The translations under genes and the position numbers were made by a program. Shown piece after piece: positions 852 to 7,857 of a DNA stretch of 11,884 nucleotides. Each line of letters begins with the position of its first letter. The stretch's first letter is position 1. The notes under the pieces were generated by a model that worked only from the letters and a program-made list of their open reading frames with translations, was not told the DNA's origin and searched no databases. Source of the DNA: Promethearchaeota archaeon (GTDB taxonomy: Archaea > Asgardarchaeota > Lokiarchaeia > Sigyniarchaeales > SOKP01); NCBI GenBank assembly GCA_016930515.1, contig JAFGGO010000181.1, forward strand, positions 1 through 11,884. Direction: 5' to 3'.

Positions 852-1514
852 GTGAAGAAAAATCTTAAGGAAATATATTTAAACCAACTAAAGGATGTAA
901 TTAAAGAAATTGAACTTAATGATAAAATGAGTATTCAAGAAGCTAGTAGGTTTATTGCTCGTGTTAGCGCAGTCGTTAAAAGAATTATCGGAGAGAATTC
1001 AGAATATTACAAATATATTGAAGAAATAAAAGAGAGATATAATAGATGGAACGATAATCACGATGTAAAATTATCATCCATTCTTGGGGTAATAGAAGGG
1101 TTATATACCGATTTAGAAAAGGATTACTTGAAATCTTTAACAGAATTGATTCACGACGATGTCTTTACTGATTTTTTAGAAATGTCAGAGCACCTGTTAA
1201 GTGAAGGTTTTAAAGACGCTGCTGCCGTCATTACGGGAAGCACCTTGGAAGAACAACTTAGAAAATTGTGTTTAAAATCTGAAATTCAAATAACGGTTAA
1301 ATCTAAAGATAAGATTAATCCAAAAAAAGCAAATCAATTAAATACGGAACTCTACAACAATAAAATTATTAAAAAAGGAGAAACGAAGCAAATTAGCGCT
1401 TGGTTAGATATTAGAAATAATGCAGCTCACGGCAATTACGACGAATACGATGAAAAAAAGGTAGAATTGATGATAGAAGGTATTAGAAATTTTATTTTAA
1501 ATTATCCTGCTTGA
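852..1514 (+). CDS. HEPN-domain protein (DUF4145-like), putative RNase/toxin
   Basis: 220 aa, GTG start with AAGTGA SD-like motif upstream. The C-terminal helical domain has 'AAAVITGSTLEEQLRKL' and the HEPN catalytic Rx4H motif 'WLDIRNNAAHG' (R188-H193, nt 1413-1430). Confidence 0.85.
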   Translation: MKKNLKEIYLNQLKDVIKEIELNDKMSIQEASRFIARVSAVVKRIIGENSEYYKYIEEIKERYNRWNDNHDVKLSSILGVIEGLYTDLEKDYLKSLTELIHDDVFTDFLEMSEHLLSEGFKDAAAVITGSTLEEQLRKLCLKSEIQITVKSKDKINPKKANQLNTELYNNKIIKKGETKQISAWLDIRNNAAHGNYDEYDEKKVELMIEGIRNFILNYPA

Positions 1515-3387: not shown

Positions 3388-6300
3388 TTATGTAATGTTA
3401 AATATTTCTTCCCCATCATACCATAATTTATTGTTCCTTTCGTAAATGTATTTAATACACGAGAAAACAATATCCCTCAAGTGTTCGTCCTCGGAATTGA
3501 GTAATTTACTCAGGAATTTTATCGTTTTATGGGTTCCTATTGGTATCAAGGAATTCAACGAGCTATATAGACGATAACCGTCTGAGAACTTCTCTTTCAA
3601 GAAATTGATGATTCTTTGTTCAAAATTTTGGGGTTTAATTAACATAATAATCTGAAATAAGTATCCGATTAAAAAATCATGTTCTTTATCAAGTAAATCA
3701 GCAAGATCCAGGCAAAATATAATATAATCTTCTGAATCAATAATTATCTTGCTAAAATTTAAACCAAAAATAAATGAGTCCAAATTTTTAATCGGGTTAT
3801 CAGACTCTAATATTTTCTTTTTTATGATTTTCAAGAAATCGAGAGAGATTTCGCTTGAAAATTTGTTTAACGGTCCTAATGTAAATGATAAATTTTCGAA
3901 ACTATCAGTCCTACAAATATATTTTTCGAATAATTCCGATGCTTGCTCTATTTCACCATTGTCCAATAATAATTCGATTAATTGCCCCATTAATAAGTAG
4001 TCGTGATATTTTTCTGGTTCTTCAAAGTATTTATTGAAGTATATCGTGATTATTTCTTTTGATCTATTAACATCGAGAGAAAAAAACGGTTTGAGTAATT
4101 TGATTAAAGATCTGTTTAAAAAAAATTGTTTTATCTCCAATAGCGCTTCAATTTTATATTTCGCAAGTAAATCGTATGTTGATTCTAAAACAAATTCGTG
4201 AGGGTAATTTCTATATGGTAAGAGAAAATCTGCCAATTCTTCCGTTTTAAAATTCAAGATGTTATTATCGTCTAATAGTCGTTCGAGAATCAAGTGTAAT
4301 GTGTAGGATAATTGATAGGAAGGAAATTTTTCTTTGAATGTTTTAATATCGCTTTTGAGAAGATCAATATCAAATTTTTCAACATCCACGCCTTCTTCTT
4401 TAAAATGATAGAGTAAATCCATGATTACATTGAATTCAATCTGGATGCTTGAATGTCTTAAAATATTCGCATAACTTTCACGATATTTTGGATATTTTGT
4501 ATCATCCTTTATAATTTTAATAATATCAGGAAGGTAATGTTTTCTTAATACAGAACCAGCTAGAGATTCGACACGATGACAAAAAACATCTAAATATTCT
4601 TTATCTATTATATTGAACAACAAGGGCATTATATCTTCTTGCTTACCGATTGAAAACATTATCTTTTTCAAACCATCCTCTCTAATATGATGGTTCTCTG
4701 AAATATTTAATCCAAAATCTTTTGGTTTTCTATATAATTCTTTAATTTTATTTTTAGAATTCTCTGTTAACTTATTCTTATCTGATATGAGTGCAAGTGC
4801 GTCTCCAATAGTTTTTAAATAATCTACACCTCTCCATTCTTGTTCTAATTCGTTTATAAGTATATCTTGAATGAATTTATCGCCATAATTCGATAAGGCT
4901 GACATTATGGTCTCCCTAATTTGTTTTACATTAAAATCCATCCTTTGATTGATTTTATCTATATTGCTAATAAGAAAATTTCGAGCGTCGTCTCCGCCTA
5001 ATTTTCCTATGGATTCCATGATCCATATGAGTATTTCTGATCTAGTATATTTTTCAAAAATACATTTCAAGACGGAAAAAGTATCATCAACTGTTCGAAG
5101 ATACTTTGTTAAAAGCTCTAAAGAAATCGTTCTTACGGCCCTATATTTTGAATTCAGCTTTTCTAGCAATACCTTTTTTATTACCATTTTTTCGTCAAGG
5201 TTTGCGTTTGATTTTTGTAGAAACGATTCGACATACAAGAAACTATTGGTTTTCTTCAAATTATTCGTATATTCGTCGTTATCTATAAAGGGAAAGCTTA
5301 TCACGATCAATTCTTTCAGCTTGAAATCGTGGAAAAGGATGCTTGGGTCGTATTTTAAAGCGTTCCTGTTGATTCTATCTACGAACTCAATTGAACCAAA
5401 ATAATTTAGCAGTAAATCGTGCCAGAATCGATACTGGTTTTTTTCTTTTATTATGTAATTGGTGTTGATGAAAAAATCTTCAATATCGTCGTCAGTGAGA
5501 GAATTTTTAATTTCAAAATCTCTTCTCAAGGGCGATGTGATGCTAGCTAAAATAGAATGAAATTGAGAATAATATAAGTTATTTGATTTAAGATTATATA
5601 ACATTTCAAAACTTAATTTACACAAAATTTTGTTTGGTAGTTCTAACAAATCGTTGTTGTATGCTAATTGTTTTGTTTTCAGATGGTCTTCAAAGTAAGC
5701 GCGTGTCAGCTCTTTTAAAATTTCGAAAATGGAATTTGGAAAGGAAGAAAATTTTCCATAATAAATTATGAGGTAATTCAGTAATAATGGCTTGTTAACG
5801 AATTCGCTCAGGTTTTTTTCTTGAATGTGGTTGAAAAAGTCTTCCGCGTCAGAATTTAAATTGTTTTGCACGTGGGTTCGGAGATCCTCAATCATTGGTG
5901 GTTCTAACGATATCACTTCGCTAAAATTTTCTTTAAAGTGTGAGGGTACGATGTGTTTTCTAGTCGTAAGAATTACGGGTATCTTTGGATAATTCCTTTT
6001 GAATAATTCGAACTTCTTGAAAAAATCTCTCGAAACAGTTGTGTCTAATTCGTCAAAACCATCCAAGAATAATGATATATTTCCGTCTTTTAAATGGTTT
6101 TGAATGTCCTTCAAATCGATGGAGAGAATATGTAATTCGTTTAAAACGAAGTTTTCCAAATCTGAGTTTTCTGTCCAATATTTTAATTCCAAGAGAATGG
6201 GTAACTTTTTAATTTCACTTGATATGAGTTTTTTCACGAACGATCTCTGTAGGTGTCGCAATAAAACGCTTTTTCCCACCCCAGAATCTCCTTCAAGGAG

Positions 6301-7167
6301 ATAAGATCTTGCGAAAGTCAATTTCTTTAACTTAGAAGCGCGTTTTTCGTCAGTTTTTTTGTCTCTTTCTCCTTCCATTTGAGGACTATTCCTATTATCA
6401 TTTGATTCTTCATTTTTTAATGTGCTTTCTATTCTCTCAAATAATCCATTAAAACCAATGTTCTCACCGTTCTCAAGATTAAAATAAAATATTTGATAAT
6501 CTCGAATTTTAACGATTTCTTCGTTTAACGCGTGAATTATATAGTCGTTCTCAAAATGTTCCTTGATGTAGTCCCGAAAATCAGTGAAATCGATATTTCT
6601 TGAGAAAGGCGCATCAATCGTTTTTTGAAATTCAGAAATCTTTTCCAAGAATGAATCGAATTGGTGTCTTTTATGCAACATAGCGCTAATCGAGGGAAAT
6701 TTTAAATCGATTTCTTCCAAGGTTTCGCATTTTAAAATTAATTCGTTAAAATCGTAAATATGGAATTGGAATCCATTTGTTAAAATTGATATATTTGATT
6801 GAACGACCAAGTGATACGCGTTTTTTTGCTTGGTGTGTTTTTCGATCTTTTGGTTAGGACCTTTAATTTCAACAAAAAAAAGCGCTTTATCCTCGTTATC
6901 GTTGCGGAAAATCTTTTTTCGTTCCCTATCGTTGACGACTATGACATCGGGTTCGGCTTGTAAATCTTTAATCTCAATTGTTTTATTTCGATTGATCGGG
7001 ATTGTTCGAGTTTTAAAGGCCTCTCCAACTTTGTAACGCTTCTTAAAAAAGAAATTCAGGTGTTGATATCCCAGAAAATCCCTCAAAAAAGGTAATACGA
7101 ATTTATGAGCAATTTCGTCTTCGTTTTTGTAATTTCTATTAGCGAATGTCCTAAGAATTTTACCCAT
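3388..7167 (-). CDS. NLR-like STAND protein: N-terminal HsdR-N-type PD-(D/E)xK nuclease, NACHT NTPase, C-terminal HEAT/ARM-like helical repeats
   Basis: 1259 aa. Nuclease: 'NEDEIAHKFVLPFL..LGY', PD74, E100-I-K102, Q114xxxY118, 'ILTNG'. NACHT: Walker A G293DSGVGKS, Walker B 'LFLD369GFDE', sensor-1 'VILTTR', 'KPLLL', winged helix 'YRFWHDLLLNYF'. HEAT-like segments: 'LNSKYRAVRTISLELL', 'ESIGKLGGDDARNFL', 'LLNSEDEHLRDIVFSCI'. Confidence 0.88.
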   Translation of the reverse strand: MGKILRTFANRNYKNEDEIAHKFVLPFLRDFLGYQHLNFFFKKRYKVGEAFKTRTIPINRNKTIEIKDLQAEPDVIVVNDRERKKIFRNDNEDKALFFVEIKGPNQKIEKHTKQKNAYHLVVQSNISILTNGFQFHIYDFNELILKCETLEEIDLKFPSISAMLHKRHQFDSFLEKISEFQKTIDAPFSRNIDFTDFRDYIKEHFENDYIIHALNEEIVKIRDYQIFYFNLENGENIGFNGLFERIESTLKNEESNDNRNSPQMEGERDKKTDEKRASKLKKLTFARSYLLEGDSGVGKSVLLRHLQRSFVKKLISSEIKKLPILLELKYWTENSDLENFVLNELHILSIDLKDIQNHLKDGNISLFLDGFDELDTTVSRDFFKKFELFKRNYPKIPVILTTRKHIVPSHFKENFSEVISLEPPMIEDLRTHVQNNLNSDAEDFFNHIQEKNLSEFVNKPLLLNYLIIYYGKFSSFPNSIFEILKELTRAYFEDHLKTKQLAYNNDLLELPNKILCKLSFEMLYNLKSNNLYYSQFHSILASITSPLRRDFEIKNSLTDDDIEDFFINTNYIIKEKNQYRFWHDLLLNYFGSIEFVDRINRNALKYDPSILFHDFKLKELIVISFPFIDNDEYTNNLKKTNSFLYVESFLQKSNANLDEKMVIKKVLLEKLNSKYRAVRTISLELLTKYLRTVDDTFSVLKCIFEKYTRSEILIWIMESIGKLGGDDARNFLISNIDKINQRMDFNVKQIRETIMSALSNYGDKFIQDILINELEQEWRGVDYLKTIGDALALISDKNKLTENSKNKIKELYRKPKDFGLNISENHHIREDGLKKIMFSIGKQEDIMPLLFNIIDKEYLDVFCHRVESLAGSVLRKHYLPDIIKIIKDDTKYPKYRESYANILRHSSIQIEFNVIMDLLYHFKEEGVDVEKFDIDLLKSDIKTFKEKFPSYQLSYTLHLILERLLDDNNILNFKTEELADFLLPYRNYPHEFVLESTYDLLAKYKIEALLEIKQFFLNRSLIKLLKPFFSLDVNRSKEIITIYFNKYFEEPEKYHDYLLMGQLIELLLDNGEIEQASELFEKYICRTDSFENLSFTLGPLNKFSSEISLDFLKIIKKKILESDNPIKNLDSFIFGLNFSKIIIDSEDYIIFCLDLADLLDKEHDFLIGYLFQIIMLIKPQNFEQRIINFLKEKFSDGYRLYSSLNSLIPIGTHKTIKFLSKLLNSEDEHLRDIVFSCIKYIYERNNKLWYDGEEIFNIT

Positions 7168-7186
7168 AATTATAAGGACTCTATTT

Positions 7187-7194
7187 TATTTAAA
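7187..7194 (-). promoter_or_regulatory. Putative TATA box of the NACHT gene (near-leaderless)
   Basis: Minus-strand TTTAAATA lies 20-27 nt upstream of ATG 7167. No SD is visible. Confidence 0.4.
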
Positions 7195-7295
7195 ATAATT
7201 AATTATTAATGTGCCATTAGCTATCGCAGTTTGTATTTTTAATCCCTTCTAAAATATGGCATTTTTGATTTTAAATAGAATCTTTTGTTTAGGTG

Positions 7296-7365
7296 AGGTG
7301 TGATCAGTATTGGTATAGGACCTGATGTCGGGGTCTTGATCGGTCATTTCTCGATTGCTGAACCT
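7296..7365 (+). ncRNA. Candidate box C/D-like or hairpin small RNA (alternative: 24-aa small ORF 7300-7374)
   Basis: GC-richer island in an AT-rich spacer. Terminal AGGT/ACCT stem. C-like GTGATCA (7300), D' CTGA (7322), C'-like TTGATCG (7336), D CTGA (7358), with two equal 15-nt spacers. TTTAAATA at 7270-7277 upstream and a T-run at 7388-7393 downstream. The C boxes deviate from RUGAUGA. Confidence 0.35.
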
Positions 7366-7537
7366 GTTCTATGATCATTGGTGCGAATTTTTTCTTGGTA
7401 TTATTAACGCGAGGTTTTTTATAAATGAATGCACTTTTAAGGTTTTCTAATGAAAATGCCCGGATGGAGGGCGATCTTGAAGGAGATTAGAGAGAATGAG
7501 AAATGTGGCGCTCGCACCGGGATTTGAACCCGGGTCA

Positions 7538-7567
7538 TTTTCCACAAGAAGAGAAACTCCTATTGTA
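7538..7567 (-). other. tRNA intron 2 (30 nt, position 43/44; 44/45 gives the same spliced product)
   Basis: TACAATAGGAGTTTCTCTTCTTGTGGAAAA. Relaxed BHB: bulge UG^U, central helix CTCC/GGAA (3/4 pairs), intron hairpin ACAATAGGAG/CTCTTCTTGT (9/10 pairs), exon helix GTCA/TGAC. Removal restores the standard short variable loop UGAC. Confidence 0.85.
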
Positions 7568-7585
7568 CAGGAGTGACAGTCCCGT

Positions 7586-7615
7586 TACAGCCTCTCATTG
7601 TTATCCAATGAAAGA
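7586..7615 (-). other. tRNA intron 1 (30 nt, position 25/26)
   Basis: TCTTTCATTGGATAACAATGAGAGGCTGTA. BHB-type motif: central helix CAGC(exon)/GCTG(intron), 4/4 pairs; bulges AU^U and UA^A; intron hairpin CTTTCATTG/CAATGAGAG (9 bp, one G-U). The exon-side outer helix is weak. Confidence 0.9.
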
Positions 7616-7857
7616 ATGCTGGACCGGTCTACACTATGCGAGCTAAATTCAAATCTGGGCTCGTAGATAAGCGTACTCTACAATTTGGTTATAATGCTAA
7701 AAGATATTTTATATTATTATATTACCTTATCTTTTTTCCAATGTTTTACTAAAATTTCCCAAGTAATAAAAATTTTTCTATAATCTATTTAAAGATCATT
7801 AGATAGTGCTTTAACAACAGCAACAAAACACAATTGCTTAAAATCAGAAATGCGACA

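Follow-up and report, generated by a model that had tools for sequence, protein, structure and literature searches.

Does a 138-nt stretch of the minus strand, in which the anticodon arm is set apart by two non-canonical insertions, constitute a working tRNA-Asp gene, how would its precursor be spliced, and how unusual is such a gene in its lineage? These questions are raised by a locus in an 11,884-nt contig of a Loki-type Asgard archaeon (the window, meaning the whole stretch of DNA that was analysed), where an original prediction had placed a tRNA-Asp gene with introns at 25/26 and 43/44. The evidence set out below makes it very probable that the organism has one functional tRNA-Asp(GTC) gene, encoded at this locus, and that its precursor loses two BHB-type introns at these two positions.

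Anatomy of the tRNA-Asp gene

The locus is a real tRNA-Asp(GTC) gene with an encoded CCA, divided into three exons by two 30-nt introns (Table 1). It opens with the 5′ acceptor strand GCTCGCA (7 nt) and closes with the complement TGCGAGC, the discriminator G and CCA, and its canonical 37/38 site is without an intron. When residues 7615–7586 and 7567–7538 are removed, the remaining 28, 18 and 32 nt join into a 78-nt RNA that ARAGORN recognises as a normal tRNA-Asp(GTC) cloverleaf. The spliced form has a 7-bp acceptor stem and D, anticodon and T arms, and displays T8, A14, G18G19, T33, a GTTCAAATC T loop and the anticodon GTC. It aligns colinearly with L031, an intronless ortholog from a related genome; the two differ by stem covariations and at positions 26 and 44. 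The cloverleaf obtained from the joined exons thus bears out the predicted coordinates, the introns at 25/26 and 43/44, the empty 37/38 site and the 18-nt middle exon composed of nt 26 and nt 27–43.

Concern that standard annotation would miss the gene proved justified, as neither ARAGORN on the raw window nor Rfam with default filters (gathering mode) on the whole window detected it. A laxer Rfam search of the window with the tRNA model RF00005 (cut-off 29) matched residues 7509–7643, with a good fit in the acceptor and in the D and T arms, and treated the middle as one 64-nt insertion; the same match was recovered in a genome-wide Rfam search. With its intron option, ARAGORN labelled the precursor as Tyr or Leu, and these calls were set aside as mislabelled. 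The two introns are unrelated in sequence, as had been predicted: a genome search found similarity neither between them nor to other sequence in the genome, only chance matches of 11–15 nt, which give no sign of recent intron transposition there.

Neighbouring genes in the window encode a NACHT/STAND-type NTPase and two leucine-rich-repeat proteins, and a further region gives a weak HEPN match; the surroundings are possibly a defence or signalling neighbourhood.

Table 1. Features of the tRNA-Asp(GTC) gene, its splice motifs and its surroundings, in window coordinates.
Feature	Position	Strand	Basis or remark
Whole tRNA-Asp(GTC) gene, pre-tRNA body and encoded CCA, 138 nt	7506..7643	-	Rfam RF00005, 35.8 bits; ARAGORN on joined exons
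Exon 1, acceptor 5′ strand and D arm, nt 1-25, 28 nt	7616..7643	-	alignment to intronless ortholog L031
Intron 1, 30 nt, at 25/26, interior 8-bp hairpin (h′)	7586..7615	-	BHB rule H 4/4; related intron at same site in L006
Exon 2, 18-nt micro-exon: nt 26 (A) and anticodon stem-loop 27-43, anticodon GTC	7568..7585	-	
Intron 2, 30 nt, at 43/44, interior hairpin (intron nt 2-11 with 15-24)	7538..7567	-	BHB rule H 3/4
Exon 3, 32 nt: variable loop (TGAC), T arm, acceptor 3′ strand, discriminator G, CCA	7506..7537	-	
BHB 1 central helix, exon strand CAGC (nt 20b-23)	7618..7621	-	pairs 4/4 with GCTG at 7588-7591
BHB 1 central helix, intron strand GCTG (intron nt 25-28)	7588..7591	-	
BHB 2 central helix, exon strand CTCC (nt 38-41)	7570..7573	-	three pairs and one C.A mismatch with GGAA at 7540-7543
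BHB 2 central helix, intron strand GGAA (intron nt 25-28)	7540..7543	-	
AT-rich TATA-like stretch TAATATAAAATATC, likely promoter, 60-82 nt upstream of gene	7703..7725	-	similar distance to relatives' motif
NACHT/STAND-type NTPase, 1259 aa, HSDR_N-like N-terminus	3388-7167	-	
Leucine-rich-repeat protein, 555 aa	1690-3357	+	
Leucine-rich-repeat protein, 541 aa	7858-9483	-	
Weak HEPN (RiboL-PSP) match	852-1514	+	

Splice motifs, junctions and the splicing endonuclease

In PMC4090602 the archaeal splicing motif is described as a 4-bp helix with a 3-nt bulge on either side, each bulge holding a splice site; in the canonical intron, according to the same text, the helix includes the first two anticodon bases. 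The BHB rule applied here states that, for an intron of n nt following exon base x, exon bases x−5 to x−2 pair with intron bases n−5 to n−2, and that each cut lies 2 nt 3′ of a helix strand. Intron 1 forms a perfect CAGC:GCTG helix with a 5′ bulge of A24-T25-T and an inner hairpin of 8 bp. Instead of a clean 3-nt bulge, its 3′ site has a 3×3 internal loop or a 6-nt bulge ahead of the outer helix. Intron 2 forms a CTCC:GGAA helix with three of four pairs and one C·A mismatch, a 5′ bulge of T42-G43-T and an inner helix of 4+5 bp; its 4-bp outer helix, GTCA (34–37) with TGAC (44–48), leaves the 3′ site as a 2–3-nt bulge. Both motifs are best described as relaxed HBh′-type, having 3-nt 5′ bulges, good inner helices and relaxed 3′ sites. 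The intron interiors fold at −9.4 kcal/mol (z = −5.7) for intron 1 and −4.6 kcal/mol (z = −2.7) for intron 2.

With both BHB cores enforced, the precursor folds at −52.9 kcal/mol, compared with −53.7 kcal/mol for the free minimum-energy fold (MFE), so that both motifs can coexist in one precursor. In the free MFE, an 8-bp hairpin (window 7560–7574; pre-tRNA nt 70–88) displaces the second BHB by pairing exon nt 37–43 and the first intron base (ACUCCUGU) with nt 5–12 of intron 2 (AUAGGAGU), and this competing hairpin might delay the removal of intron 2. The central helices tie up bases of the D and anticodon stems, so that neither of these cloverleaf arms can form until splicing has taken place. 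The participation of cloverleaf bases 20b–23 and 38–41 in the motifs had been foreseen, and mapping of the helices confirms that the splicing fold and the cloverleaf are locally exclusive. Splicing before folding is a general property of non-canonical introns.

It is proposed that transcription generates a precursor of at least 138 nt, from which two 30-nt protein-spliced introns must be removed. D-arm bases 20b–23 would pair with bases 25–28 of intron 1, and anticodon-arm bases 38–41 with bases 25–28 of intron 2, each forming the 4-bp helix of a relaxed BHB in which the interior of the intron would serve as the inner hairpin. A heteromeric EndA, composed of a catalytic alpha subunit with a Crenarchaea-type loop and a His-less beta subunit, would then cut 2 nt 3′ of each helix strand, and a ligase (RtcB in relatives) would join the three exons. 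The D stem and anticodon stem would form only after exon joining, and the predicted end product is a 75-nt body plus CCA, carrying A26 and U44.

These last two residues are unusual. The motif-defined cuts give A26 and U44 (window 7585 and 7537), which open the exons on the 3′ side of introns 1 and 2, respectively; T26 and C44 are present in every one of the 55 other family genes. At every other point, the excision junctions agree with the intronless orthologs L031, L035, L058 and L076. Positions 26 and 44 are tertiary partners in tRNA, which makes a joint change plausible. The cause could be a co-change of the tertiary pair or a footprint of intron insertion. Cutting intron 1 one base further 3′, at 26/27, would leave the gene and mechanism the same and would yield a mature U26 and a middle exon of 17 nt (27–43), in keeping with the T at position 26 of all 55 other family genes; a sequence-only spliced alignment also chose this junction. 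However, the central helix would then have 1/4 pairs rather than the 4/4 obtained at 25/26, and cuts 2 nt 3′ of the helix strands reproduce the right mature sequence for the other introns of the family. Furthermore, position 44 has also changed (C to U) in the window gene alone, which fits a co-change from U26/C44 to A26/U44. The 26/27 junction was rejected on helix geometry and is considered improbable, and 25/26 is retained as the predicted junction of intron 1.

The assembly that contains the window (G000) has exactly two EndA-domain genes, C83 (197 aa) and C30 (201 aa), both of which match PF02778 and PF01974. The 197-aa protein, the putative alpha subunit, aligns end to end with the Aeropyrum pernix catalytic subunit 3P1Z_B (E = 5.6e-35). 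The catalytic Tyr/His/Lys context is conserved in this alignment, and the specificity loop is ungapped, with K55 and R57 aligned to A. pernix K44 and R46. Among solved structures, the A. pernix EndA (PDB 3P1Z/3AJV; Hirata et al. 2011, PMC3241643) stands nearest to the alpha subunit, and it likewise has a separate structural beta subunit; its K44, kept as K55 in the alpha subunit together with R46 as R57, is required to cut non-canonical and relaxed motifs, that is, for broad specificity (PMC3241643). The A. pernix enzyme is a solved structure, whereas the Asgard subunits were assigned by sequence alignment. The 201-aa protein, the putative beta subunit, has Ser at the catalytic His position of M. 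jannaschii EndA, and this enzyme, not a crenarchaeal beta subunit, was its closest match in PDB searches.

The two paralogs fit a broad-specificity heteromeric (alpha-beta)2 EndA with a Crenarchaea-type loop, a form of the enzyme already reported in Asgard archaea (PMC5829648). An enzyme of this kind had been anticipated for the lineage, and the candidate subunits, one catalytic with the loop lysine and the other lacking the catalytic His, agree with that expectation. RtcB (PF01139) was not found in G000, either by profile or by tblastn with the 495-aa RtcB of a relative. As RtcB is present in 19 of the 21 genomes searched (G000 and 20 relatives), three of them from the same genus, its absence from G000 is most likely an assembly gap.

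Copy number, function and promoter

Looser searches of the assembly (94% complete, 190 contigs) for Asp anticodon loops, Asp-type 5′ exons and T-arm/acceptor combinations found no second tRNA-Asp. The anticodon-arm core GGGACTGTCACTCC has one copy in the assembly. Of 135 family genomes, 114 contain it, usually with just one exact match each. Every stem pair of the tRNA-Asp is intact, including all 7 acceptor pairs and the 5 T-stem pairs. Relative to the acceptor of related genes (GCCCACA/TGTGGGC), pair 3:70 has changed from C-G to T-A and pair 5:68 from A-T to G-C, both of which are compensatory double changes. Since the gene is the sole tRNA-Asp candidate in the assembly, we infer charging with Asp and a role in translation.

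The gene might be a decaying pseudogene, with insertions that are not or inefficiently removed, while the tRNA-Asp in use is encoded in sequence missing from the assembly. The completeness and fragmentation of the assembly leave room for this; in its favour one may also count the weakened central helix of intron 2, the hairpin competing with its BHB, and the residues at 26 and 44, which are atypical of the family. Nevertheless, a pseudogene is highly improbable. The intronless tRNA-Asp elsewhere in the genome, on which the original prediction had made such a reading depend, gave no signal in the assembly searches, and in family genomes that match the exact anticodon-arm pattern it is usually single. 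Both inserts retain BHB geometry and exact lengths, and the stems are perfectly paired through compensatory changes. Moreover, 93% of orthologs are interrupted as well, so that interruption is no sign of decay. The occurrence of a sole tRNA-Asp in a 94%-complete assembly, taken with the compensatory stem changes, argues that the locus is not a pseudogene, and the gene is read as essential and spliced. Weighed against this reading are the C·A mismatch and competing hairpin of intron 2, the relaxed 3′ site of intron 1, the unique A26 and U44, and the RtcB that was not found in G000.

Upstream of the gene, the AT-rich stretch listed in Table 1 is likely to be its archaeal promoter. Most family members (e.g. 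L004, L010, L031 and L061) have a conserved BRE/TATA-like element, AAAATTTTTATATTTT, about 45–65 nt upstream of the mature 5′ end, and the window element is a looser AT-rich version of it. The position of the conserved element suggests 5′ leaders of several tens of nucleotides.

Intron positions across the family and in other archaea

The survey of tRNA-Asp intron positions that the original prediction had called for was carried out on 56 distinct clean genes of the same Promethearchaeota (Loki-type) family, using a spliced alignment with down-weighted acceptor columns. L022, L033, L034, L075, L088 and L090 were excluded because their acceptors were unpaired in the alignment, and L086 because of its mature length of 74 nt. 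The survey showed that 52 of the 56 genes (93%) are interrupted: 36 have one intron, 13 have two, 2 have three and 1 (L043) has four, so that 16 of the 56 carry two to four. Four genes (L031, L035, L058 and L076) have no intron. The 72 introns occupy 10 positions, most commonly 59/60 (25 introns), 43/44 (14), 20b/21 (13), 15/16 (8), 53/54 (4), 48/49 (3) and 25/26 (2), and are 28–34 nt long, with a mode of 30. Across all 72 introns in the 52 genes, the central helix is 95% paired, compared with 43% in a control in which helix strands were swapped between positions, and the folds of the intron interiors are more stable than those of shuffled sequences (mean z = −2.7).

Within this set, 43/44 is the second commonest site and is shared with 13 other family genes, including L004 and L025. 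The intron strand of the 43/44 helix is GGAG in 12 of these relatives and GGGG in 1, and the GGAA of the window gene is the weakest. Among the 56 genes, a 25/26 intron is otherwise found only in L006, where it likewise starts with TCTTT and ends with GAGGCTG plus two bases. L006 (25/26) and L004, L025 and others (43/44) are single-intron orthologs with the same junctions as the window gene, which is the only one of the 56 sampled to combine 25/26 with 43/44. The original prediction had allowed that this intron pair might already be catalogued as common; that proved true of each intron singly and of two-intron genes generally, but not of the exact pair.

The original prediction had also proposed that the anticodon-arm exon could be a functional module, skipped or exchanged by trans-splicing to make alternative RNAs. 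The architecture invites this idea, as exon 2 is exactly nt 26–43, and EndA with a ligase would in principle be able to link exons that are not neighbours. However, a search of the genome revealed no spare anticodon-arm exons and no BHB halves related to these introns, and the introns of relatives are spread over 10 sites without preference for isolating the anticodon arm. In addition, 25/26 and 43/44 are combined in the window gene only, and a skipped product would be an RNA without an anticodon. Skipping or exchange of the exon found no support and is extremely improbable.

The most interrupted gene of the census, L043 (G016:C91, region 7124–7577), is 192 nt in all and has four BHB-type introns, at 17/17a, 27/28, 53/54 and 59/60, as well as a micro-exon of 6 nt (nt 54–59). 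This is one intron above the stated maximum of three per gene in Thermoproteales, the textbook case of multi-intron tRNAs cut by a loop-bearing (alpha-beta)2 EndA (PMC4033280). The Thermoproteales introns (Sugahara 2007/2008; PMC4090602, PMC4033280) resemble those described here in that they are short, protein-spliced and bounded by BHB or relaxed HBh′ motifs. The available review text names sites including 20/21, 25/26, 53/54, 56/57 and 59/60, of which 25/26 is shared with the window gene; 43/44 is absent from the sites named there, in a list that ends in 'etc.'. The same text (PMC4090602) gives introns at 25/26, 37/38 and 56/57 for P. islandicum tRNA-Pro and describes C. maquilingensis tRNA-Glu as split at 25/26. 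The Thermoproteales differ in belonging to TACK rather than to the Asgard phylum, and the window gene differs in having no canonical intron.

A closer likeness is found within the Asgard superphylum itself. In Atabeyarchaeia and Freyarchaeia, introns are reported in 92–95% of tRNA genes, with non-canonical positions and multiple introns in one gene both frequent (Valentin-Alvarado et al. 2024, PMC11291895). The Freyarchaeia tRNA-Asp(GTC) is 135 nt long with two introns (PMC11291895, Supplementary Data 4); if the begin and end columns of the table are read as interleaved, these introns are about 28–29 nt and the middle exon is 7 nt, so that it too is a two-intron gene with a very short middle exon. 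The table coordinates put both introns 3′ of the anticodon arm, unlike in the window gene, where they are at 25/26 and 43/44. These archaea belong to a different class from the Loki-type Promethearchaeota, and BHB geometry and per-position turnover were not analysed in that paper.

The rarity implied for the window gene was not upheld: in its family interruption of tRNA-Asp is the rule (93%), 43/44 is a common site, 25/26 is known from the literature (PMC4090602) and smaller micro-exons, of 6 and 7 nt, exist. Multi-intron tRNAs and this type of EndA are already published for Asgard archaea, the window gene is ordinary for its lineage, and only its intron pairing was previously unlisted.

The intron sites also differ at shorter range. 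The tRNA-Asp of a same-genus genome, G001, has an intron at 59/60 only. No Asp anticodon arm was detected in 4 of the 5 other genomes of the genus, so the within-genus comparison is with G001 alone. BLAST matches in same-genus G005 were considered as tRNA-Asp and rejected, being tRNA-Glu(TTC). In two single-contig genomes of the same order, the tRNA-Asp introns are at 15/16 and 59/60 in one and at 59/60 in the other. It is tentatively suggested, as a possibility held to be less likely than not, that the window gene is a snapshot of very fast turnover of BHB introns in Loki-type Asgard archaea, which would be actively gained and lost through a DNA-level mechanism. The basis for this suggestion is the difference between G001 (59/60 only) and the window gene (25/26 and 43/44), together with the occurrence of 10 sites in one family. 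Were such turnover the case, A26 and U44 could be insertion footprints.

Interrupted tRNA genes were also seen at other loci. At contig ends of G005, L177 (C110:1–260) and L026 (C131:1–60) each contain a tRNA-Glu(TTC) whose D arm, or its vicinity, carries an insert; a second interrupted tRNA comes next, and the two loci appear to represent a repeated tRNA cluster that breaks the assembly. In G000, other tRNA genes are often 100–135 nt long (C18:12876–13010, C128:5256–5386, C140:10573–10703, C12:7863–7973 and others), which implies one to several non-canonical introns in each. The genome-wide Rfam search returned only 27 tRNA matches, and part of the tRNA set is therefore probably too disrupted for detection.

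As a single gene, the tRNA-Asp described here matters little, adding one more multi-intron tRNA to a published pattern. It does show that simple tRNA finders will miss essential tRNAs when run on Asgard metagenome assemblies (MAGs). The more interesting by-product is intron turnover across the family: for one tRNA in one family, introns that hardly vary in size (28–34 nt) and obey one geometric rule interrupt 93% of genes, at 10 sites in total, and the sites shift within a genus. These genomes thus constitute a good natural data set on the movement of protein-spliced introns and on the tolerance of broad-specificity EndA, and one that is relevant to how tRNA splicing in eukaryotes arose.
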